In this document: positions 49,844-58,801 of the stretch, one piece after another
How positions within the stretch are numbered: position 1 is the first letter of the stretch
Layout of the letters: each line of letters opens with the position of its first letter
From: Gemmatimonadales bacterium
Lineage (GTDB): Bacteria; Gemmatimonadota; Gemmatimonadetes; Gemmatimonadales; GWC2-71-9
Length of the DNA: 64,000 bases
Direction of reading: 5' to 3'
NCBI GenBank assembly: GCA_036004525.1
Contig: DASYRJ010000040.1
Span: 5,810 to 69,809, forward strand
Made by a program: the position numbers and the translations under genes
The notes under the pieces: model-generated
The model's database searches: none
What the model was told of the DNA's origin: nothing
What the model saw: the letters and a program-made list of their open reading frames with translations, nothing else

Positions 49844-50907
49844 TAGTTGACCAGCTCCACCAGTGCCGGCGGTGCGCGCATTCCCCACACGTCGCGCATC
49901 GGGACGGTGACGATCTGGGGACGGTTGCCGGGCAGGCCGTCCCGGCCGTCGGGGCCACGGACACCGGCGCGGCCGGCGGGTCCGGCGGCGCCCGCGGTGC
50001 AGCGGGGGTCGCTCGCGGGCGACGCGGCGCCGCCCTTGCCGCCGGCGCCGCCCTTGCCCCCCGCGCCGCCGCTCCCGCCCTCACCGCCCGGCGTGCGCGC
50101 GTCCACGAGCCCGGCGAGGAACGGCTCTTCGGCGGGGGCGATGATGGTGATCTGGCCGCCGCGCCCGCCGGGGCCACCGGGGCTGCCGTTGCCGCCCGCT
50201 CCGCCGGGCCCGCCGGCGCCCCCGGGGCAGCCGGCGGTGCCTGCCGCGCCGGCGGTGCCGTTCTGCCCGTCGTCGCCGCGCACGCCGCGTGCCCCCCGCG
50301 CCTCGATGACCAGCCAGTCGGACGGCGGCACCGCCTGCGCATCGGCAAACACATAGAAAGGCGGGGCATCTTCGACTTCCACGCCCGCCACGAGCAAGCG
50401 CGAGTAGAACGGGGACCGCAAAATGCCGAGCCGCACGGTCACCTGCGGGCCGCTGGCGCCGGCGCCCGCGCCGCGGAACCCGAAGGCGTGCGGCATGCAG
50501 GCGTAGTCCGGCGTCAGCACGGTCGTCGTGGTGATTGAGGGCTTGGCCTTGAGCGTCGCGGTCAGCCGGAAGCCGGTGACCGCGCTCGTGAGCGCATCGG
50601 GGTCGGCGGCCCAACCGCCGCCCTCGAGGGGCGTCGCCTCCTGGCTGGTGCGCTCGAGAAACGTCATGTGGAGCCGGGGCGGCCGCTTGGCGTCGTAGCG
50701 CGATTCGAACGGGACGAGGGCGCCGTCGTTCAGGACGGCGGTGTATTGCGCGCCGAATGTCTCGCCGGGACAGCCCCGAGTGTTCGTGACCATCCTGATC
50801 TCGCGGATCTGCTCCACGAGCCCCGGGTCGGGAGCGAAGTCGGGGGGCGGCCCTTTCGGGCCGCACGCCGCCGTCAGGAAAACCGCTGCCGCGACCACCC
50901 GCTTCAT
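49828..50907 (-). CDS. Lipoprotein with collagen-like G-X-Y runs and a Gly-rich region
   Basis: Lies in ORF 49828..51138, with an ATG at 50907 after GGAG. It has the lipobox LTAAC. The G-X-Y runs are GARGVRGDDGQNGTAGAAGTAG and GAAGPAGRAGVRGPDGRDGLPG. Confidence 0.6.
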   Translation of the reverse strand: MKRVVAAAVFLTAACGPKGPPPDFAPDPGLVEQIREIRMVTNTRGCPGETFGAQYTAVLNDGALVPFESRYDAKRPPRLHMTFLERTSQEATPLEGGGWAADPDALTSAVTGFRLTATLKAKPSITTTTVLTPDYACMPHAFGFRGAGAGASGPQVTVRLGILRSPFYSRLLVAGVEVEDAPPFYVFADAQAVPPSDWLVIEARGARGVRGDDGQNGTAGAAGTAGCPGGAGGPGGAGGNGSPGGPGGRGGQITIIAPAEEPFLAGLVDARTPGGEGGSGGAGGKGGAGGKGGAASPASDPRCTAGAAGPAGRAGVRGPDGRDGLPGNRPQIVTVPMRDVWGMRAPPALVELVNYRGRR

Positions 50908-52355
50908 GGATTCTCCTCGCGCAGGAGACGCTTCGACTCGATGTCGAAGACCTGGACGCGGATCACGACGCCGGCACGGCGGGCGTCGACTACCCGCACG
51001 TGCACGACACTCCGGTCCTGACCGGGCCGATAGAGAATCCAGCTTCCCGCCGGTGCTGCGGCCGCTACTCCGGCACAGGGGCGGGACTTGGGCTTCGGCT
51101 GCTGGCCGGGGGGCGTGCCGGGGATCCACACGCGACACTCGCCGGGGTCGGGCAGATGGCCCGGCGGGACGTCGAGCGTCACCGCCGTGTTCGGCCCCGG
51201 CGGCTGCTCCGGCGGCCGCTGGTCCGGACGCGGTTGTTCCGGGGGCTTATTCTCGGGCGGCCGCTGCTCGGGCGGCCGTTGCTCTGGCGGCCGCTGCTCG
51301 GGCGGCCGTTGCTCCGGAGGGCGCTGCTCCGGCGGCCGCTGTGCCGGAGGTGGTTGCTCCGGGGGCTTATTCTCGGGCGGCCGCTGCTCTGGAGGGCGTT
51401 GCTCCGGCGGCTTGTTCTCCGGGGGCGGCTGCTGCGCCGGCGGCCGCGGCTCAGGCGGTCTTCCGATCGGCGGCTGGATGTCGGGCCGCTGGTCCAGAGG
51501 CCGGGGCCGCTCCTCGTTTTGCGGCGGTTCCTCTTCGCGGACCAGCTGCTCCGAAGCGATGTCGAAGATCCGAATGCGGGTGACGATGCCCGGCCGGCGT
51601 GCGTCCACCACGCGTACATGCACGACCCTGAGGTCCTCCCCGGGGCGGTAGACGATCCAGCTGCCCGCTGGTGCGACGGCAGCGATGCCCTCGCAGGGAC
51701 GCGACCTGGGCGGCGGCTGCTGGCCGGGCGGAGCGCCCGGGATCCAGACGCGGCACTCTCCCGGGTCGGGGAGGTGGCCGGGTGGGACGCCGAGTCTCCC
51801 GGCGTCGTCACGCGGTCTGTACTCGGGTGGACGCTGGTCCTCAGCAGGGGGCGGGCGGCGCTCCTCCCGAGGCCGGTCGTCGCGACGCTGCTCGTCCTGC
51901 GGCTCCTCTTCGCGGACCAGCTGCTCCGAAGCGATGTCGAAGATGCGGATGCGGATGACGAACCCCGGGCGCCGTTCGTCTACCACGCGAACGTGCACCA
52001 CTCTCCGGTCGTCGCCGGGGCGATAGATGATCCAGCTGCCCGCGGGTGCGACGGCCAGGATGCCCGTGCAGGGGCGTGACCGGGGTCTGGGCTGCCGCCC
52101 GGGCGGCGTTCCCGGGACCCACACGCGGCACTCGCCGGGATCGGGGAGGTGGCCGGGCGGGACGCCGAGCAGCACCGCGGTGTTAGGGGGAGGGGGATTC
52201 GGGTTGGGCCGCTCGGGCTCGGGGTAGCTGCGGGGTGGGGGTCTCGAGCCCCGGCGGTCCGTGTCCGGTGCCGGCTCGCGCACGATGATCGTTCTGGTGC
52301 ACCCGGCGAGCAGCAGCAGCCCGCCCAGGGTGAGGACCGTGGTGCCCTTGCGCAT
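50904..52355 (-). CDS. Lipoprotein with three copies of an uncharacterised ~95-aa domain separated by Pro-rich (PPEQR)n linkers
   Basis: Lies in ORF 50904..52415, with an ATG at 52355 (MRKGTTVLTLGGLLLLAGC lipobox). The repeated core is VPPGHLPDPGECRVW.PG.PPG.QP.P.SRPC...APAGSWI.YRPG.D..VVHVRVVD.RR.G.V.R..FDI.S..L.REE. Confidence 0.65.
   Translation of the reverse strand: MRKGTTVLTLGGLLLLAGCTRTIIVREPAPDTDRRGSRPPPRSYPEPERPNPNPPPPNTAVLLGVPPGHLPDPGECRVWVPGTPPGRQPRPRSRPCTGILAVAPAGSWIIYRPGDDRRVVHVRVVDERRPGFVIRIRIFDIASEQLVREEEPQDEQRRDDRPREERRPPPAEDQRPPEYRPRDDAGRLGVPPGHLPDPGECRVWIPGAPPGQQPPPRSRPCEGIAAVAPAGSWIVYRPGEDLRVVHVRVVDARRPGIVTRIRIFDIASEQLVREEEPPQNEERPRPLDQRPDIQPPIGRPPEPRPPAQQPPPENKPPEQRPPEQRPPENKPPEQPPPAQRPPEQRPPEQRPPEQRPPEQRPPEQRPPENKPPEQPRPDQRPPEQPPGPNTAVTLDVPPGHLPDPGECRVWIPGTPPGQQPKPKSRPCAGVAAAAPAGSWILYRPGQDRSVVHVRVVDARRAGVVIRVQVFDIESKRLLREENP
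50907..52184 (-). repeat. Three intragenic ~285-nt direct repeats (50907..51191, 51525..51803, 51900..52184)
   Basis: The protein-level triplication is visible in the ORF translation. It is mirrored at the DNA level, for example gatccacacgcgacactcgccgg / gatccagacgcggcactctcccgg / gacccacacgcggcactcgccgg. Confidence 0.75.
51205..51444 (-). repeat. About 16 tandem 15-nt units encoding PPEQR/PPENK pentapeptides
   Basis: The plus strand reads ctgctccggcggccg / ctgctcgggcggccg / ttgctctggcggccg and so on, in frame with CDS 50904..52355. A 120-nt higher-order duplication is visible (ttgttccgggggcttattctcgggcggccgctgctc occurs twice). Confidence 0.8.
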
Positions 52356-52480
52356 GATCAAGCTCCCTCGAGGACGGGCTCCAATGTAGTGTTTGGAGTC
52401 CGTGCCGTGGGTCACCCGAGCTTTCCCGCCGCTTCCGGCGCGATTAAGTTTGTGTTTCTTAGCGTCTTAGCGTCTGTCGT

Positions 52481-52555
52481 GGTGGCTGTAGCTCAATCGG
52501 TTAGAGCGCCGGACTGTGGCTCCGGAGGTTGCGGGTTCGATTCCCGTCAGCCACC
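52481..52555 (+). tRNA. tRNA-His: tRNA-His (anticodon GTG) with genome-encoded G-1
   Basis: Hand-folded cloverleaf: G-1, acceptor GTGGCTG/CAGCCAC, anticodon stem CCGGA/TCCGG, loop CTGTGGC, T-arm GCGGG-TTCGATT-CCCGT, discriminator C. No encoded CCA. Confidence 0.85.
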
Positions 52556-52606
52556 CTAACTACTAGACGCCGAGACGCCGGAGACGCCAAGATGCCGAGG
52601 TCTTAG

Positions 52607-52632
52607 ACGGCGGGTCCATGCGGGCCCGCCGT
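52607..52632 (+). terminator. Hairpin downstream of tRNA-His
   Basis: ACGGCGGG / CCCGCCGT stem with a 10-nt loop, followed by TCTTGTGG (a weak U-tract). Confidence 0.4.
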
Positions 52633-53029
52633 TCTTGTGGTCAGTCGGCGCCCTCCACGACCGCCAAATCTCTCCAAGTTCATCCCGGACCGGTTCCATC
52701 GTTTCTTCCATCGTCACCTGTCAGCCTCGTGCGCCGCGACCGCCGCCCAATCAAAGGCTCGAAGGACCCCAGAATGCATCAATGGCCGAGCGCGAGTCGA
52801 AGTGCGGCGAGGCTTACCCCAGGGTGGAGCGAGTCGCAAGGCTTTGCGCTGCCGAGCACGAACAGGTCGTTTCCGCCTGCGCCCCATGATGGGGTGACAA
52901 CAGTCACAGCCTACTCTGGCCCAAACGAGCAAGGTCTAGGGCCTCACGATCCGGTCACAACGTACCGCCTAAAGCAGAAAAGTCCTGCGCCCTCAAGAAC
53001 GAACATGATGCCCAAAGAGGAGGGCAACC

Positions 53030-53878
53030 ATGCCATACCAGGCCGAAATCAGTCGTAAGAACCCGGGCTGTTTCCTGTTTCTGGTCGACCAGTCCGAGTC
53101 AATGGAAGACCCCTTTGCCGGCGGAGACAATGGCAAAAAGAAGGCCGAGGAGCTGGCGACCATCCTCAACAAGCTCATTCATAATCTGTCCATCCGTTGC
53201 GCCAAATCGGACTCGATTTACGACTACTTCCACGTCGGTGTGCTGGGCTACAGCGAAGACAGCTGTAAACCGGCGCTCGGCGGTGAGCTGAGCGGCCGCT
53301 CGTTGGTGCCGATCAGTGAATTGGCCGGCAAGCCGTTGCGCATCGAAGAACGAGCCAAGCAATCGGACGATGGCGCCGGCGGGGTGATGGAGCAAACGGT
53401 GAAATTTCCGGTCTGGTTCGACGCCTATGCGAAGGGCGGCACTCCGATGTGCGCCGCGCTCAAGGACGCAACCAAGATTGTCGAGACGTGGTGCCAGGAG
53501 CATCCGCAGGGATTCCCGCCAATCGTCATCAACATCACCGACGGCGAGGCGACGGATGGAGATCTCGTTGCCGCGGCGCGGAAGCTGACGGAGGTCAGCG
53601 GCGCCGACGGTGAGGTGTTGCTGTTCAACATCCATCTTTCGTCGACGGCCGGGCCATCGATCGAATTGCCGTGCAACGCCGCCAAGCTTCCGGATCAGTA
53701 TGCCAAAGCGCTGTTTGAAGCCTCATCGACGCTCACACCGTTCATGGTTGCACGCGCGAAGGAGCTGGGTTTGCCGGCCGCGGACGACTCGCGCGGATTC
53801 ATCTTCAACGCGCAACCGTTGCACGTCATCCATTTTCTCGATATCGGCACGCGGCCGGCGAATGTGCGCCTGCGCTGA
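53030..53878 (+). CDS. von Willebrand factor A (vWA) domain protein, TerY-like
   Basis: Has the MIDAS motif LVDQSESM (DxSxS), GGTPM and TDGEATDG. A strong SD (GAGGAGGG) lies 5 nt before the ATG. Confidence 0.85.
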   Translation: MPYQAEISRKNPGCFLFLVDQSESMEDPFAGGDNGKKKAEELATILNKLIHNLSIRCAKSDSIYDYFHVGVLGYSEDSCKPALGGELSGRSLVPISELAGKPLRIEERAKQSDDGAGGVMEQTVKFPVWFDAYAKGGTPMCAALKDATKIVETWCQEHPQGFPPIVINITDGEATDGDLVAAARKLTEVSGADGEVLLFNIHLSSTAGPSIELPCNAAKLPDQYAKALFEASSTLTPFMVARAKELGLPAADDSRGFIFNAQPLHVIHFLDIGTRPANVRLR

Positions 53879-53885
53879 GCACTAG

Positions 53886-54713
53886 TTGGCCGCTCCTGCA
53901 GTGAGCCACGCCTCGGCGGCCAACACGTACGACATCAAGGCCTTTTGCTGCCCCAAGTCGGGCAACAGCGTGGAGGAGTACGAGGATGCATGGGCGCAGC
54001 GGCAAACTCGCACCGCCCCCCCCGCCCCCCCGGCCCCCCCGGGGGGGGGCATGCGCGTGGCGGTGGCCGATGGCGCCACCGAAAGCAGTTTCGCCAAGCT
54101 CTGGGCGGTGCTGCTCGCCGAAAGCTATGTGCGCAGTGAGCTCACCGGGGCGGAGTTTTTCGCGCGGCTTGGGGCCGCGCGACGCCTCTGGCGGCGCAGA
54201 TTGGCGGGACGCCCGCTCCCCTGGTTCGCCAGCGAGAAGGCCGAGCAGGGCGCGTTCGCGGCGTTGCTCGGCGTCCAGATCGACGCTCACCAGAACCGGT
54301 GGACGGCGCTGGCCGTTGGTGACTGTTGCCTCATGCAGGTCGATGACGTCGGTAAAGGGATGCGGGTGCTCAAAGCGTTCCCCTTGCAGCAATCGTCGCA
54401 ATTCACCATGAGCCCGTATCTGATCGGCTCCAGGTCGGACGGCGAACCACCGCACGAACGGATCCAAGTCAGCACGGGCAGCCTGCGCGATGGCGATATG
54501 CTTCTGCTCGCGAGCGATGCGATGGCTGCCTGGCTGCTCAAACGGCATGAAGACGGGCGACCATTGTGGAGGTGGCTGTACCGGAAGCTGAGTACGCCAG
54601 AGAACTTTGCCGCGATGGTCGCCTACGGCCGCAAGCATGGATTGCGCAACGACGACTTTACCCTGGTCCGCGTCATTCATCACGATGCACCGGTCGAAGC
54701 GAAGGAGAGATAG
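53886..54713 (+). CDS. PP2C-family serine/threonine phosphatase
   Basis: Has the motifs EEYEDAW, VAVADGATES, VGDCC and LASDAM. The start is the TTG at 53886 or the GTG at 53901. Confidence 0.75.
   Translation: MAAPAVSHASAANTYDIKAFCCPKSGNSVEEYEDAWAQRQTRTAPPAPPAPPGGGMRVAVADGATESSFAKLWAVLLAESYVRSELTGAEFFARLGAARRLWRRRLAGRPLPWFASEKAEQGAFAALLGVQIDAHQNRWTALAVGDCCLMQVDDVGKGMRVLKAFPLQQSSQFTMSPYLIGSRSDGEPPHERIQVSTGSLRDGDMLLLASDAMAAWLLKRHEDGRPLWRWLYRKLSTPENFAAMVAYGRKHGLRNDDFTLVRVIHHDAPVEAKER
54016..54049 (+). repeat. Homopolymer cluster C8-G-C7-GG-C7-G9 inside the phosphatase gene
   Basis: Read directly from the sequence as ccccccccgcccccccggcccccccggggggggg. It encodes APPAPPAPPGGG and is followed by an in-frame ATG at 54051. 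Confidence 0.95.
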
Positions 54714-54715
54714 CG

Positions 54716-55741
54716 ATGGGGGCTTGGCCGGACCTGACCGAATACCATGAGGCGGTTCAGCACCCGCAGAAGGCTTTTGCTGACCCAGGATTGAGAGCGG
54801 TCGCCCTCGAGCTCGATCGGTTCGGGATGCCCAAGCCGGCCACCGGCGCCAACGCCGTGGTCTACAAAGGCACGAAACCGGGCGGGTTCTTCTCGTTCAG
54901 GAAGACCTGGGCGATTCGCTGCTTCCTGCGGCCCATCAGCGACCATGCCGAAAGGTATGAGGCGATTTCCAGACATCTTCACAAGGTCAGCCTGCGCTAC
55001 GACGTGGATTTTCGGTTTCTCAAGCAGGGTATCCAAATCGGCTCCCGCTGGTTCCCGATCGTCAAAATGCAATGGGCGGAGGGGGACCTGCTGCACAGTT
55101 ATATCGAAAAGCAGCTCCCCTATCCCTGGTTACTGGCGACATTGCGAGCAAAGTGGGTAACACTCGTTCGCGACCTCGAAGCCGCTCGGGTCGCGCACGG
55201 CGATTTGCAGCAGGGCAATATCCTGGTGCGTGGCGGATCGTTTCAGTTGGTCGACTACGACGGCATGTGGGTGCCGGCCTTGAAGGGCCGCCACGCCACG
55301 GAAACCGGCCACCGCGCCTACCAGCATCCCGAACGGAGCGAGCAAGACTACGGGCCGGAGATCGATCGTTTTTCAGCGCTCGTCATCTATCTATCGCTGG
55401 CGGCGCTGGAGGAGGATGCCACCCTCTGGGAAAATTTTCATACCGGCGACAATCTGATCTTCGTGCGCGAAGATTTCCAGCAGGTGGGTCGGTCGGCGAT
55501 TTGGCAACAATTACGTCGTATCAGATCGCCGCAGATCGACCAACTCGCCGCTGCCCTGGCGACCATGCTGCAGCAGCATCCGATGAAGGTCGGCAATCTC
55601 GATAGCGTTCTCCAGAATCTGGCGAGCTTCAAATTCCCCACCTCGACTCCGGCGTCGACTCCGGCCCAGCGAGTCGCTCCCAAGCCGGCGCCCGTGCCGA
55701 GTTGGATAAAAGGGAGCGGTTATCGTAATTCGGATGACTGA
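54716..55741 (+). CDS. Ser/Thr protein-kinase-like protein
   Basis: Lies in ORF 54566..55741, with an ATG at 54716 after GAAGGAGAGA. It has the catalytic loop HGDLQQGNILV and the DFG-equivalent VDYDGM. Confidence 0.75.
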   Translation: MGAWPDLTEYHEAVQHPQKAFADPGLRAVALELDRFGMPKPATGANAVVYKGTKPGGFFSFRKTWAIRCFLRPISDHAERYEAISRHLHKVSLRYDVDFRFLKQGIQIGSRWFPIVKMQWAEGDLLHSYIEKQLPYPWLLATLRAKWVTLVRDLEAARVAHGDLQQGNILVRGGSFQLVDYDGMWVPALKGRHATETGHRAYQHPERSEQDYGPEIDRFSALVIYLSLAALEEDATLWENFHTGDNLIFVREDFQQVGRSAIWQQLRRIRSPQIDQLAAALATMLQQHPMKVGNLDSVLQNLASFKFPTSTPASTPAQRVAPKPAPVPSWIKGSGYRNSDD

Positions 55742-55794
55742 GGAGCCTTCCACGGCCGCCCCGGATTCTGTAACTTCCAGCCGCAGCACATCCT

Positions 55795-55867
55795 AGGTCC
55801 GTAGCTCAATTGGTAGAGCACCGGTCTCCAAAACCGGGGGTTGCAGGTTCGATTCCTGCCGGGCCTG
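55795..55867 (+). tRNA. tRNA-Trp: tRNA-Trp (anticodon CCA)
   Basis: Hand-folded: acceptor AGGTCCG/CGGGCCT, anticodon stem CCGGT/ACCGG, loop CTCCAAA, T-arm GCAGG-TTCGATT-CCTGC, discriminator G. Confidence 0.85.
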
Positions 55868-55887
55868 TGTGAATTACAACGACTTAC

Positions 55888-55919
55888 GCGCGAGGGCACT
55901 CACCCTCGCGCTGCTTTTT
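55888..55919 (+). terminator. Rho-independent terminator after tRNA-Trp
   Basis: GCGCGAGGG / CCCTCGCGC stem with loop CACTCA, followed by TGCTTTTT. Confidence 0.7.
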
Positions 55920-55955
55920 GTGTCCAATTCGCGTCCATTACCGAGGGGCTAAGCA

Positions 55956-57257
55956 ATGACACACCTCAGGCCTCTTGCCGCGGCGTTCTGGGCCGCCCTC
56001 ACCGTAGCGTCAGCTCCACTATTCGGTCAGACCGCAATCCCGAACACCCCCGCCGGAAAGGTGCTACGTGCCTGGGTCGACGCGTACAACAGCGGCGACT
56101 CCGCGCGCGTGGCGACGTTCTTCCGCACCTACTCTGTGGAAGACGCCCTTCGCGGTGCATTCGCATTCCGCAAGATGACGGGGGGGCTTGACCTGCTCAG
56201 CGTCCAGGTGAGTGAGCCGAGGCACGTTGAATTCATGACCCGATTCCGCCTCGGGCCGATGGTAGGCTACGGGGCGCTCGACGTGTCGGCGGCCGACACG
56301 AGTCGCGTGAGCGGCTACTTCTTCCCGCTCGGCATGAACGTCTCCGTGGACGACATTCGGATCGACGCGCCCACTCGCGAGCGCGTAGTCGGTCGTCTGG
56401 CCGCGCTCCTCGATTCGTTCTACGTGTCCCCCGAAGTCGGGAAGCGCATGAGCGACTCTCTGCACGCGCGCCTCAAGCGAGGTGTCTATGACAGGTACAC
56501 GAACGGCGCGACCTTCGCGATCCACCTCAGGGCGGATCTCGATGACATCGCTCACGACAAGCACCTGCAAATTCTCTACAGCCTGTTACCCCGAGGTCCG
56601 GAACCGCAACCGGATACGGTCACTCAACACCGGCGCGAGCGCGAAGCCGACTGCCCGGTCTGGGTGACCGAGCGGCTCGAGGGGAACGTCGGGTACCTAC
56701 GGTTCGACGGGTTTGTCGATCCGGCAGAGTGCGGGTCGACCATCGTCACGGCGATGACCGCCTTGGCCGAAACGAAAGCGCTCATCATTGACCTGCGGGA
56801 AAACGCGGGCGGCGGTAAAGCCGGCTCAACTCCTCTCCTCGAGTCGTACTTGTTTGACCGCCGTACTCATCTCAGTGACGTGCGGTTCCGTTATACCGGC
56901 GAAACACGGGAGCGCTGGACATTGGACTCCGTTGCCGGTGCGCGCTTCGGCGGGGAGAAGCCTGTCTATGTGCTTACTTCCGCGCATACGCTTTCGGCAG
57001 GTGAGGAATTGGCGTACGACCTGCACGCGCTCAAGCGCGCCACGATCGTGGGCGAGACGACGTCCGGCCAAGCCCATGCGACATTTGAAGCCCGCATTGA
57101 AAACCACTTTGCCATCCTGCTGCCCACCGGAAAGACGCTCAACCCGGTGACCGGTGCAGATTGGGAGGGCGTGGGAGTAGTGCCGGACGTGAAGGTGCCT
57201 GCGAGCGACGCACTAATCACGGCGCAGAGGCTGCTCCGCGAGAAGCTGCCGCATTAG
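55956..57257 (+). CDS. S41-family peptidase (tail-specific protease / IRBP-like)
   Basis: Has a signal peptide, LIIDLRENAGGG and TSAHTLSAGEE (Ser nucleophile region). Confidence 0.75.
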   Translation: MTHLRPLAAAFWAALTVASAPLFGQTAIPNTPAGKVLRAWVDAYNSGDSARVATFFRTYSVEDALRGAFAFRKMTGGLDLLSVQVSEPRHVEFMTRFRLGPMVGYGALDVSAADTSRVSGYFFPLGMNVSVDDIRIDAPTRERVVGRLAALLDSFYVSPEVGKRMSDSLHARLKRGVYDRYTNGATFAIHLRADLDDIAHDKHLQILYSLLPRGPEPQPDTVTQHRREREADCPVWVTERLEGNVGYLRFDGFVDPAECGSTIVTAMTALAETKALIIDLRENAGGGKAGSTPLLESYLFDRRTHLSDVRFRYTGETRERWTLDSVAGARFGGEKPVYVLTSAHTLSAGEELAYDLHALKRATIVGETTSGQAHATFEARIENHFAILLPTGKTLNPVTGADWEGVGVVPDVKVPASDALITAQRLLREKLPH

Positions 57258-57895
57258 CGCCTTCTCACTCGAGCCCTACGGCCGATCCCCGGGAACAACC
57301 GCTACCGTGCCGCTCCACTCACGAGGTTCACCGGGCCGCCGCCGCGCACATCGTGGGCCGGTCGGCAGCGAAGCAGCACCGTCCACACGAGCGGGCCGAG
57401 CGACGCGCGGAGCATGGGCGGACTAAGGGTTTCGTAAATCGTTGCTGCGCCGACGAGGTCCAAGTCCTCGTCCGGCGGGGGCTGGACGGGTTGATGCTGG
57501 ATTGACGGTTTTTTTCGGTGTCGAGATTGTGTGAGCGGCGCTTCAAGTAAGGCCGCGCTTGCCGCAGGGCTCGTGAGGCACACCAGCCTTACGCTCCGCC
57601 TTTGTGAACGCGAGCAGGAGCGAGTCTTGACGATAGGTCGCTTGAGGGTCGGCCCCGAGGGCCCGCTTATGCTGATGCGACGAGTAATGCACCCACTACC
57701 AGCGTAGCGGTCGCGCTCCGTCACAAGTTCGGGATTCACGGATGGGGCAAGGGTCTGGATCTCGCGACCGGAAAACGCTATCGGTTCATGCTCAACAGGC
57801 TCGGGATCTAGCGGGTTCCAGACCGGCACGTGAGAATAGTTGCTGGGTGGCCGCGGTTGCCGTTCCGCCACCATACCCGACACCCCAGGAGCCCC

Positions 57896-58801
57896 ATGCC
57901 CCGTCCCTCCATGGTTCTCGCGCTCACCGCGTTCGCCCTCAGCACGTCCGTCGCGCAGGCGCAGATCCCCAATCTCCGCCGGAAGGCGAAAGAAGCCGGC
58001 CGACAGGCCGTCACAGGCCAGCAGGCGCAACAGCAGCGCCGCCCGCCGCCGAAGTTCGACAACACGATGCTCGAGCTGAATTCGCAAGTCGTCGCGCGGC
58101 TGATCACCGGTCTCGAAACCCGCAGCAGGATGCGCGGCGCCGGTGGCCAGACCGCGGCTGAGCTCCGGCGGCGGTCGTCCGCCGCCTCTGACGAGGCGAT
58201 GAACATCAACAATCAGTACAGCGACGACCGCGCGCAGTGGGTGAACGCGAACGAGGCGGCTGAGAGCTGTGTGAGCGAAGAGCTCAACAACGTGGAGCAG
58301 CGGCACGCCCAGGAAATGCAGCAGCGCTTCGCGGGCATGACGGGCGTGAACACTGCCGACAAGATGAAATTCATGCAGGAATGGACCGCGGCGTCGCAGG
58401 AAGTCCAGCACGCGGCGATGGCGAACGACACGGCGGCAATGCGCCGCGCACAGGAAAAGCTGAATAAGCTGATGGGGGTGGACGCGCGCGCCGACAGTGC
58501 CAAGGCGCGCGCCACGTGCCATGTGCCCCCGGTGCCGGCGTGGATGCGCCGCGCCGACTCGCTCTCCGCGATCTCTGACACGCTGGCTGTTCGGGCGCGC
58601 GATGCGGAAGTCGCCGGGAACGCCGGCGCCGCCCGCGCGGCCGGGATGACGCCCGAGCAATTCGCGATGGCAGCCGAGCGCGCCGAGGGGTTCGTGGCGC
58701 TCCAGGCCGCGGGGAACGTCGGCAGCGGCTGGGTGTTCACCCCGATCGAAGAGCAGGCGCTCACTGCGCGACTCGTCGACCTGAAGAAATACTTCGCGTG
58801 A
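57896..58801 (+). CDS. Hypothetical secreted, helix-rich protein
   Basis: Lies in ORF 57830..58801, with an ATG at 57896 after AGGAG. The signal peptide is MPRPSMVLALTAFALSTSVAQAQ. I recognise no domain. Confidence 0.5.
   Translation: MPRPSMVLALTAFALSTSVAQAQIPNLRRKAKEAGRQAVTGQQAQQQRRPPPKFDNTMLELNSQVVARLITGLETRSRMRGAGGQTAAELRRRSSAASDEAMNINNQYSDDRAQWVNANEAAESCVSEELNNVEQRHAQEMQQRFAGMTGVNTADKMKFMQEWTAASQEVQHAAMANDTAAMRRAQEKLNKLMGVDARADSAKARATCHVPPVPAWMRRADSLSAISDTLAVRARDAEVAGNAGAARAAGMTPEQFAMAAERAEGFVALQAAGNVGSGWVFTPIEEQALTARLVDLKKYFA

Follow-up and report, generated by a model that had tools for sequence, protein, structure and literature searches.

A minimal-kinase TerY-P triad as foreign cargo between tRNA-His and tRNA-Trp in a soil Gemmatimonadales genome

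The 64-kb stretch of DNA analysed here (the window, part of contig DASYRJ010000040.1) has a soil Gemmatimonadales metagenome-assembled genome (MAG) as its host and carries a compact three-gene operon, a TerY-phosphorylation (TerY-P) triad, between two tRNA genes. ARAGORN and Rfam located tRNA-His (GTG) at 52482-52556 (RF00005, 73 bits) and tRNA-Trp (CCA) at 55794-55868, both on the forward strand, as the sole tRNAs of the window. They form the left and right borders of a cargo slot, with tRNA-His as the 5' member of an ancestral tRNA-His/tRNA-Trp pair. The original prediction, made from the sequence of the window, had recognised this bracket correctly except that its coordinates were off by 1 nt. 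As it had also stated, exactly three co-directional and tightly spaced open reading frames (ORFs) lie between the tRNAs, encoding a vWA (von Willebrand factor A) protein resembling TerY, a PP2C-fold phosphatase and a Ser/Thr-kinase-like protein. The gap from TerY to PP2C is 7-22 nt, depending on the start codon chosen, that from PP2C to the kinase is 2 nt, and the kinase stop lies 52 nt from tRNA-Trp. The Shine-Dalgarno sites expected before the first and third genes are both present, GAGGAGGG ahead of the TerY start at 53030 and GAAGGAGAGA (54701-54710) ahead of the kinase ATG at 54716.

Searches of all three proteins with the PADLOC hidden Markov models (HMMs) of the TerY-P components bore out the proposed identity. 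The TerY-like protein (53030-53878, forward strand, 282 aa) matched the TerY model along its full length (1.4e-100, profile 1-277 of 277), the phosphatase matched PP2C (9.3e-27), and the kinase (54716-55741, forward strand, 341 aa) matched STK_OB (4.8e-72, profile 2-297 of 562). Pfam matches were weak throughout: VWA at 1.5e-5, PP2C_2 at 1.7e-4 with 21.6 bits, under the gathering score of 24, and Pkinase likewise under its gathering score. Sequence searches of the PDB with the three proteins returned no informative relatives, and for PP2C no match of any kind. Confident AlphaFold2 models gave TerY a vWA fold (83.4 in pLDDT, the predicted score for the local distance difference test), with the anthrax-toxin receptor, TRAP, integrin I and TFIIH p44 as PDB matches, and gave the kinase a protein-kinase fold (pLDDT 89.5), with Bacillus subtilis YabT and Myt1 as its top PDB matches.

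The catalytic and metal-binding motifs on which the original prediction had relied are present, and they are invariant among relatives. The metal ion-dependent adhesion site (MIDAS) of TerY is intact (D20, S22, S24, T138 and D171) and did not vary in 24 homologues, the acidic motifs of PP2C (D57, D141, D206 and D251/D252) were invariant in nine, and the kinase motifs HGDLQxGN, which forms the catalytic loop, and DYDG were conserved across 32 diverse family members. The ratio of nonsynonymous to synonymous substitution rates (dN/dS) was 0.15-0.22 for TerY, 0.18-0.23 for PP2C and 0.23-0.32 for the kinase, which means that the triad is maintained by selection. Thus a vWA protein with a MIDAS, an adjoining PP2C and an adjoining kinase in one operon, the features of a TerY-P triad in the broad sense of Anantharaman 2012, are all found here. 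The triad is a minimal-kinase variant of the known TerY-P and not a new kind of system. We are highly confident of this identity together with the horizontal origin described below.

The kinase sets this triad apart. The STK_OB match and the kinase fold uphold its assignment as the third member, whereas the OB fold of validated TerY-P kinases is lacking. The match covers 53% of the STK_OB model, its N-terminal kinase half only. The protein ends at residue 341 with a tail devoid of Cys and has no C-terminal OB, zinc-ribbon or WD40 domain. In the alignment of homologues the kinase module is followed by a disordered and variable P/A/S/T linker and then by the conserved C-terminal peptide VPSW[IML]KxSGYR[DN]SDD; residues 314-341 are disordered in the structural model. 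We considered whether the adjacent tRNA could have truncated the kinase. This was ruled out, because the close homologues, which fall into more than 120 clusters at 90% identity from soil Gemmatimonadota, are all 339-413 aa long. Judged by these clusters, a large Gemmatimonadota clade has the short form as its native one. Among the best 150 relatives in the wider family, taken as representatives at 50% identity, nearly all comprise 550-1378 aa and carry the kinase module N-terminally, and only about six full-length ones have 400 aa or fewer. The C-terminal parts of the long relatives that we sampled were WD40 propellers, a double zinc ribbon, a second kinase module or a fused TerY. At the position of the beta3 lysine ('VAIK'), the kinase bears an arginine (R68, in WAVRCF), as do most family members, with Lys in a minority. 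In canonical kinases, Lys-to-Arg at this position is a classic kinase-dead substitution. Because the residue is usually Arg in the family, we treat phosphotransfer by this kinase as an assumption.

The phosphatase gene on the forward strand ends at the TAG codon 54711-54713 and begins at either the first in-frame TTG (53886) or a GTG (53901), of which the latter is the more likely start because it is conserved across relatives. It includes a homopolymer tract at 54017-54050 (C8-G-C7-GG-C7-G9, forward strand) that encodes PPAPPAPPGGG. In an alignment of nine loci this tract was a 27-nt in-frame insertion compared with all other homologues. At the same site, a 97%-identical contig (L001; L numbers denote loci from other assemblies) has C10, and L002 carries no expansion. 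The tract could be a slippage-prone and possibly phase-variable site, or a region sensitive to assembly.

The triad has the composition of foreign DNA. The GC content drops regionally from about 0.71 to 0.58-0.62. Against 29 host genes of the window, for which GC at third codon positions (GC3) is 0.877 +/- 0.022, GC3 is 0.763 for TerY (z -5.1), 0.804 for PP2C (z -3.3) and 0.728 for the kinase (z -6.7), and an index akin to the codon adaptation index (CAI) gave z -3.1 to -5.2 for the triad genes. Between them, GC3 and the CAI-like index lie at z -3 to -7. The A/T-rich islet of the original prediction is therefore real as far as the triad is concerned (GC3 z -3.3 to -6.7), but it is not confined to the tRNA bracket. 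The low-GC block runs past tRNA-Trp through an S41 peptidase gene (55956-57257, forward strand; Pfam Peptidase_S41, 6.8e-23; GC3 0.763, z -5.1) that is not part of TerY-P, and host-like values return only with the ORF at 57830-58801 (GC3 0.852, z -1.1).

The occupancy of the slot in relatives points the same way. A search anchored on the S41 peptidase led to one syntenic GTDB genome, Gemmatimonadales SMAG_U13252 (L010), whose upstream genes encode proteins 64-72% identical to those of the window. There, the same two tRNA genes, tRNA-His and tRNA-Trp, enclose the triad in inverted orientation, with the kinase stop 12 nt from tRNA-His. A second search, anchored on the upstream permease, recovered 80 metagenomic loci that share the order Omp85-like protein, permease, unknown protein, Pro-rich protein and tRNA-His. 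In 12 of these loci the slot is empty, with 2-199 nt separating the two tRNAs. In the basal relatives L170 (8456-8608) and L171 (8090-8241) the distance is only 2-3 nt, from which it follows that tRNA-His and tRNA-Trp formed a tRNA operon. Six loci hold 1.6-6.1 kb of other cargo between both tRNAs, several carry other genes following tRNA-His and lack a tRNA-Trp within range, and in two (L126 and L140) an inverted triad abuts tRNA-His; the inverted copies sit 12-38 nt from that gene. The horizontal insertion at a tRNA pair that had been proposed is hence supported by synteny, with 12 empty slots, at least six with alternative cargo and three with an inverted triad.

The commonest alternative cargo, found just after tRNA-His in seven loci (L108, L112, L116, L124, L132, L160 and L167), is an ABC ATPase with an ABC-2 permease, sometimes accompanied by a SAM-methyltransferase. 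Others include a multihaem cytochrome, a galactose-oxidase-like protein, a REC-kinase, S8-PKD subtilases, a MerR regulator with a hydrolase, and exopolysaccharide (EPS) genes, KaiC and RCC1. We also considered the slot as a defence hotspot and rejected the idea, as the PADLOC matches of the cargos reflected generic ATPase, kinase and methyltransferase similarity with little that was specific to defence. Since its cargos are mostly non-defence, the slot is a general flexible hotspot and not a defence island. Integration hotspots flanked by core genes and lacking mobile-element genes have reportedly been described by Oliveira and colleagues (Nat Commun, 2017), as have core defence hotspots in Pseudomonas aeruginosa. 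The present locus is like them in its fixed slot, its conserved flanks, its empty, different or same cargo in either orientation, and its lack of an integrase. It differs in having as flanks two tRNA genes that once made up a tRNA operon, and in cargos that are mostly non-defence.

Could the triad instead have been inherited vertically at this locus, with gene-specific constraint accounting for its composition and conservation and with deletions accounting for the empty sites? Three other lineages do carry the triad in the same tRNA interval, and all three genes are under purifying selection. However, between the window and L010 the synonymous divergence (dS) of the backbone genes (Omp85-like protein, permease and unknown gene) is 1.0-1.08, whereas it is 0.43 for TerY, 0.43 for PP2C, 0.39 for the kinase and 0.18 for the S41 peptidase. 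These low values indicate that the triad and the S41 gene share a far more recent ancestry than the backbone, the triad standing at 0.4 against 1.0 for adjacent genes of the same genome pair. A rough neighbour-joining (NJ) tree built on the anchor proteins places the empty loci L097, L098 and L102, the nearest informative relatives of the window, as sister to its lineage. The loci with an inverted triad are spread over a distant clade, beside loci that are empty or hold other cargo, and the slot is empty in the basal loci too, with spacers down to 2-3 nt. The orientation of the triad also differs between lineages, and the cassette is present in many unrelated loci. We therefore disfavour vertical inheritance, which has hardly any probability left. 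Taken together, the dS values, the empty sites and the opposite orientations imply that the cassette was acquired or rearranged at the slot at least twice, and make the S41 gene a second, independently exchanged cargo.

The same cassette occurs at 83-92% nucleotide identity in at least eight unrelated contexts, none of which has a tRNA next to the triad. A Pkinase-TPR gene lies upstream in L003 and an ankyrin gene in L004; L006 has DUF3006, HNH, RNase T and SNF2 genes downstream. Elsewhere the neighbours are a giant protein and a serpin (L007), ThuA and a lactonase (L008), Uma2, DUF2779, IS3 and an OLD-type ATPase-TOPRIM gene (L089), DUF302 and GGDEF (L090), or a metallo-beta-lactamase and IS110 (L092-L095). 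The recurring neighbours at L089 6140-16298, L092 6784-11116 and L006 2785-10105 look like variable or defence-type islands, and the metallo-beta-lactamase of the L092 region is Apyc1-like. In every host the cassette has a GC content of 0.60-0.64, below that of each flank (0.62-0.72). Plasmid carriage was limited to two distant matches (40-45%) on cyanobacterial megaplasmids, and no phage matches were found. Contigs from metagenomes and MAGs very often end inside the triad or at its edge (L001-L006 and many other matches), which suggests that strain-level variation or multiple copies disrupt assembly.

Homology between cassette copies sets in within the leader and ends 2-5 nt past the kinase stop codon in nine of the nine contexts examined. 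These copies share no 3' terminal element, be it an attC-like site, an inverted repeat or a terminator. We had to temper the sharp ends as proof of a precise mobile element, because homology to L011 and L012 is likewise confined to the gene itself in the case of S41, and the loss of alignable non-coding DNA contributes to the sharp ends as well. From these comparisons the transferred unit is, in our reading, a self-contained operon of about 2.9 kb, roughly 52870-55746, extending from the conserved leader with its palindrome to 2-5 nt past the kinase stop and devoid of a recombinase. The cassette would most likely have spread among related genomes by recombination into flexible regions, and at the tRNA slot the highly conserved tRNA genes could have supplied the flanking homology for insertion.

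The position immediately 3' of a tRNA gene is a classic site of integration, and the islet might accordingly be what is left of a tRNA-targeting integrative element that lost its integrase and its attachment (att) repeats and retained the triad. Integrative elements do seem to use this tRNA pair. In Gemmatimonadetes bacterium 13_1_20CM_4_69_16 (L009, 787-820), only the 3' 35 nt of tRNA-Trp stand directly upstream of the S41 gene, preceded by unrelated DNA of lower GC, with the contig ending 785 nt upstream; this fragment resembles an attR-type scar, as left by an element that integrated into tRNA-Trp. In the window, however, there is no integrase, as the original prediction had noted, nor any att-type direct repeat or any fragment of tRNA-His or tRNA-Trp, even when up to three mismatches were allowed, and the integrase and duplicated tRNA 3' ends of a tRNA-targeting island are thus both lacking. 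About 20 occupied versions of the slot likewise contained neither integrases nor transposases. The cassette has the same sharp boundaries elsewhere with no tRNA nearby, and its inverted copies lie 12-38 nt from tRNA-His. A decayed element of this kind is in our judgement very improbable.

The leader between the end of tRNA-His and TerY measures 473 nt and is mostly lineage-specific beyond its first 80 nt or so. Its first part (52557-52640, forward strand) is a remnant of the ancestral inter-tRNA spacer, beginning with TAACTACTAGACGCCGAG, whose roughly 20 nt match the spacer of the empty loci L164 and L147, and continuing with a terminator-like hairpin, serving tRNA-His, and a T-rich tail. The hairpin (ACGGCGGG at 52607-52614 and CCCGCCGT at 52625-52632) was read directly from the sequence; the terminator scan missed it because its loop is 10 nt long. 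Farther downstream, the element at 52874-52941 (forward strand) travels with the cassette and is the sole invariant block in leaders from eight genomic contexts. It centres on the palindrome GTGACAACAGTCAC (52894-52907; GTGA-N6-TCAC), 123 nt upstream of the TerY ATG. Of the 14 loci for which upstream DNA is available, 13 have the exact palindrome, 87-288 nt ahead of the TerY ATG (at L003 9713, L004 9887, L007 6669, L010 7825, L089 8267, L090 8140 and L092 3966, among others), with fixed half-sites and six variable central bases. The window as a whole contains three matches against 0.6 expected. The palindrome resembles the CRP-family consensus TGTGA-N6-TCACA, and the conserved element is probably an operator/promoter region with the palindrome as a protein operator. 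A scan for sigma-70 promoters found nothing, such a scan being uninformative for Gemmatimonadota. In the leader Rfam matched no family, finding only the tRNAs, and we saw no conserved ORF. The idea of an RNA element or riboswitch went unsupported, given that RNAalifold found no compensatory pairs, and hence no covariation, in five leaders.

At the other end of the cassette, the scan returned no terminator-like site from 55007 to 55888, which includes the gap between the kinase gene and tRNA-Trp. An intrinsic-terminator-like hairpin of nine pairs, eight of them G-C, follows tRNA-Trp at 55888-55921 (forward strand) and leads into the T-run TGCTTTTTGT. With no terminator ahead of tRNA-Trp and a strong one behind it, the tRNA may be co-transcribed with the cassette.

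Compared with the stand-alone TerY-P of Gao et al. 2020 (PADLOC 'TerY-P', DefenseFinder 'Gao_TerY'), the triad has the same components in the same order, namely a TerY-type vWA protein, PP2C and kinase. All three match the PADLOC models, TerY at full length, and the operon is likewise compact (about 2.7 kb), patchily distributed and horizontally mobile. The OB fold of the stand-alone system, as given in PMC11090510, is absent here, its place being taken by a 45-aa disordered tail with the conserved terminal peptide; moreover, the present triad comes from a soil Gemmatimonadales. The TerY-P of CoCoNuT Type II/III-A, which are McrBC-related systems (Bell et al., eLife 2024, PMC11090510), draws on the same vWA, PP2C and Ser/Thr-kinase families. 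Its kinases end in a zinc ribbon and belong to CnuB/C/H/E operons, whereas the window kinase has no zinc ribbon, and among the flanking genes PADLOC and Pfam detected none for McrBC, HEPN or a helicase. With the TerY-phosphorylation triad of Anantharaman, Iyer and Aravind (2012, as summarised in PMC11090510) our triad shares the defining architecture and the predicted metal-dependent phosphorylation switch. It differs in being linked neither to ter (tellurite) genes nor to DNA-processing systems and in standing alone between tRNAs.

The original prediction had also named TerY-P as one of the defence systems of Gao et al. 2020 whose mechanism is not known, and the literature agrees (PMC11090510, PMC7699616, bioRxiv 10.1101/2022.08.12.503731). 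TerY-P protects against T7-like phages (PMC7699616), and the P. aeruginosa TerY-P protects against Autographiviridae at low and at high multiplicity of infection (MOI), with most cells surviving (bioRxiv 10.1101/2022.08.12.503731). It has further been hypothesised to be a metal-sensing phosphorylation switch, and triads have been linked to tellurite resistance (PMC11090510). The literature searched contained no mechanistic study of TerY-P. By analogy with the families involved, the kinase and PP2C could form an antagonistic phospho-switch that sets the phosphorylation of TerY and/or of phage or host targets. TerY could serve, through its MIDAS metal site, as a sensor, as an adaptor or docking surface, or as a substrate of the switch. 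Infection would then tip the balance to phosphorylation of phage or host targets, so that the phage is blocked and the cell is not killed, as was reported for the Pseudomonas TerY-P. Given that the window kinase lacks a C-terminal nucleic-acid- or protein-binding domain, signal recognition would have to lie in TerY, in the kinase core or in the conserved C-terminal peptide.

Our explanation as a whole, a complete TerY-P triad that was inserted horizontally into the tRNA-His/tRNA-Trp spacer and works as a phospho-switch defence, is one that we consider probable. Within it, an anti-phage role of the triad is somewhat favoured, and the specific mechanism just outlined is rather doubtful. Several points weigh against this explanation. 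Protection from phages is known at the level of the family and is extended from there to the Gemmatimonadota triad. Validated kinases carry the OB fold and CoCoNuT-linked ones the zinc ribbon, and the window kinase has neither; it also has arginine for the beta3 lysine, and its phosphotransfer is an assumption. No other defence genes adjoin the triad in the window according to PADLOC and Pfam, and with hotspot cargos that are mostly transporters, peptidases and EPS genes there is no guilt by association to invoke. Finally, the insertion took place by a mechanism that left no visible repeats or recombinase.

Some of the same evidence would fit a triad that acts as a general stress- or metal-sensing signalling module in the service of host physiology, responding to envelope or metal stress and not to phages. 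The triad retains an intact MIDAS metal site and lacks the nucleic-acid-binding OB domain, and PMC11090510 gives both the link to tellurite resistance and the hypothesis of a metal-sensing switch. The conserved CRP-like palindrome suggests regulation by host physiology, and the window has no defence neighbours, the cargos of the hotspot being metabolic and envelope genes. On the other hand, neither ter genes nor metal transporters were linked to the triad in more than 10 contexts, and some contexts hold IS elements and OLD-family ATPase-TOPRIM, HNH and SNF2 genes. A patchy, mobile distribution and a foreign composition are typical of defence cargo, and the models that gave the best HMM matches were derived from defence systems. 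We regard a host stress module as unlikely, though as the strongest of the competitors to defence.

We also entertain a bolder, three-part proposal, which as a conjunction is quite improbable. The triad may be the minimal functional core of TerY-P, with the C-terminal domains of other kinases (OB, zinc ribbon, WD40 and others) as dispensable add-ons; the vWA/MIDAS protein may then be the real infection sensor, perhaps docking the conserved acidic C-terminal peptide of the kinase (...SGYRNSDD). The cassette may be a unit of promoter plus operon with a CRP-type operator that spreads recombinase-free by recombination into flexible slots. In the third part, the cassette split the tRNA-His/tRNA-Trp operon, and expression of tRNA-Trp would be coupled to the cassette and so would stabilise it.

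The original prediction is right in its essentials. By itself the finding reveals no new kind of system. Its value lies in that the sensor, the target and the effector step of TerY-P are all unsolved, and a naturally minimal triad, abundant in soil Gemmatimonadota, narrows down where recognition can be located. With its three proteins of about 900 residues in total, it is also a system for reconstitution. In addition, the locus provides a clean example of recombinase-free exchange in a poorly studied phylum, with empty, alternative-cargo and inverted states of one tRNA-flanked slot.

The S41 peptidase downstream of tRNA-Trp occupies a second cargo slot that is exchanged independently. None of the 80 permease-anchored relatives has it downstream of tRNA-Trp, and it occurs in the unrelated contexts L011 and L012 at 82-93% identity; in L010 tRNA-Trp and the S41 gene are separated by an inserted S8-PKD subtilase. 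The EPS and regulatory neighbourhood that had been proposed was not borne out for the immediate surroundings, whose genes encode an Omp85-like protein, an amino-acid permease, the S41 peptidase, a giant surface protein and the Pro-rich protein with repeats. The Pro-rich protein (50904-52415, reverse strand, about 500 aa) contains an internal module about 100 aa long (...VPPGHLPDPGECRVWxPGxPPGxQP...SRPC...VVHVRVVD...) in three copies, with PEQRP-type low-complexity runs between the repeats, and the number of repeats varies across relatives.

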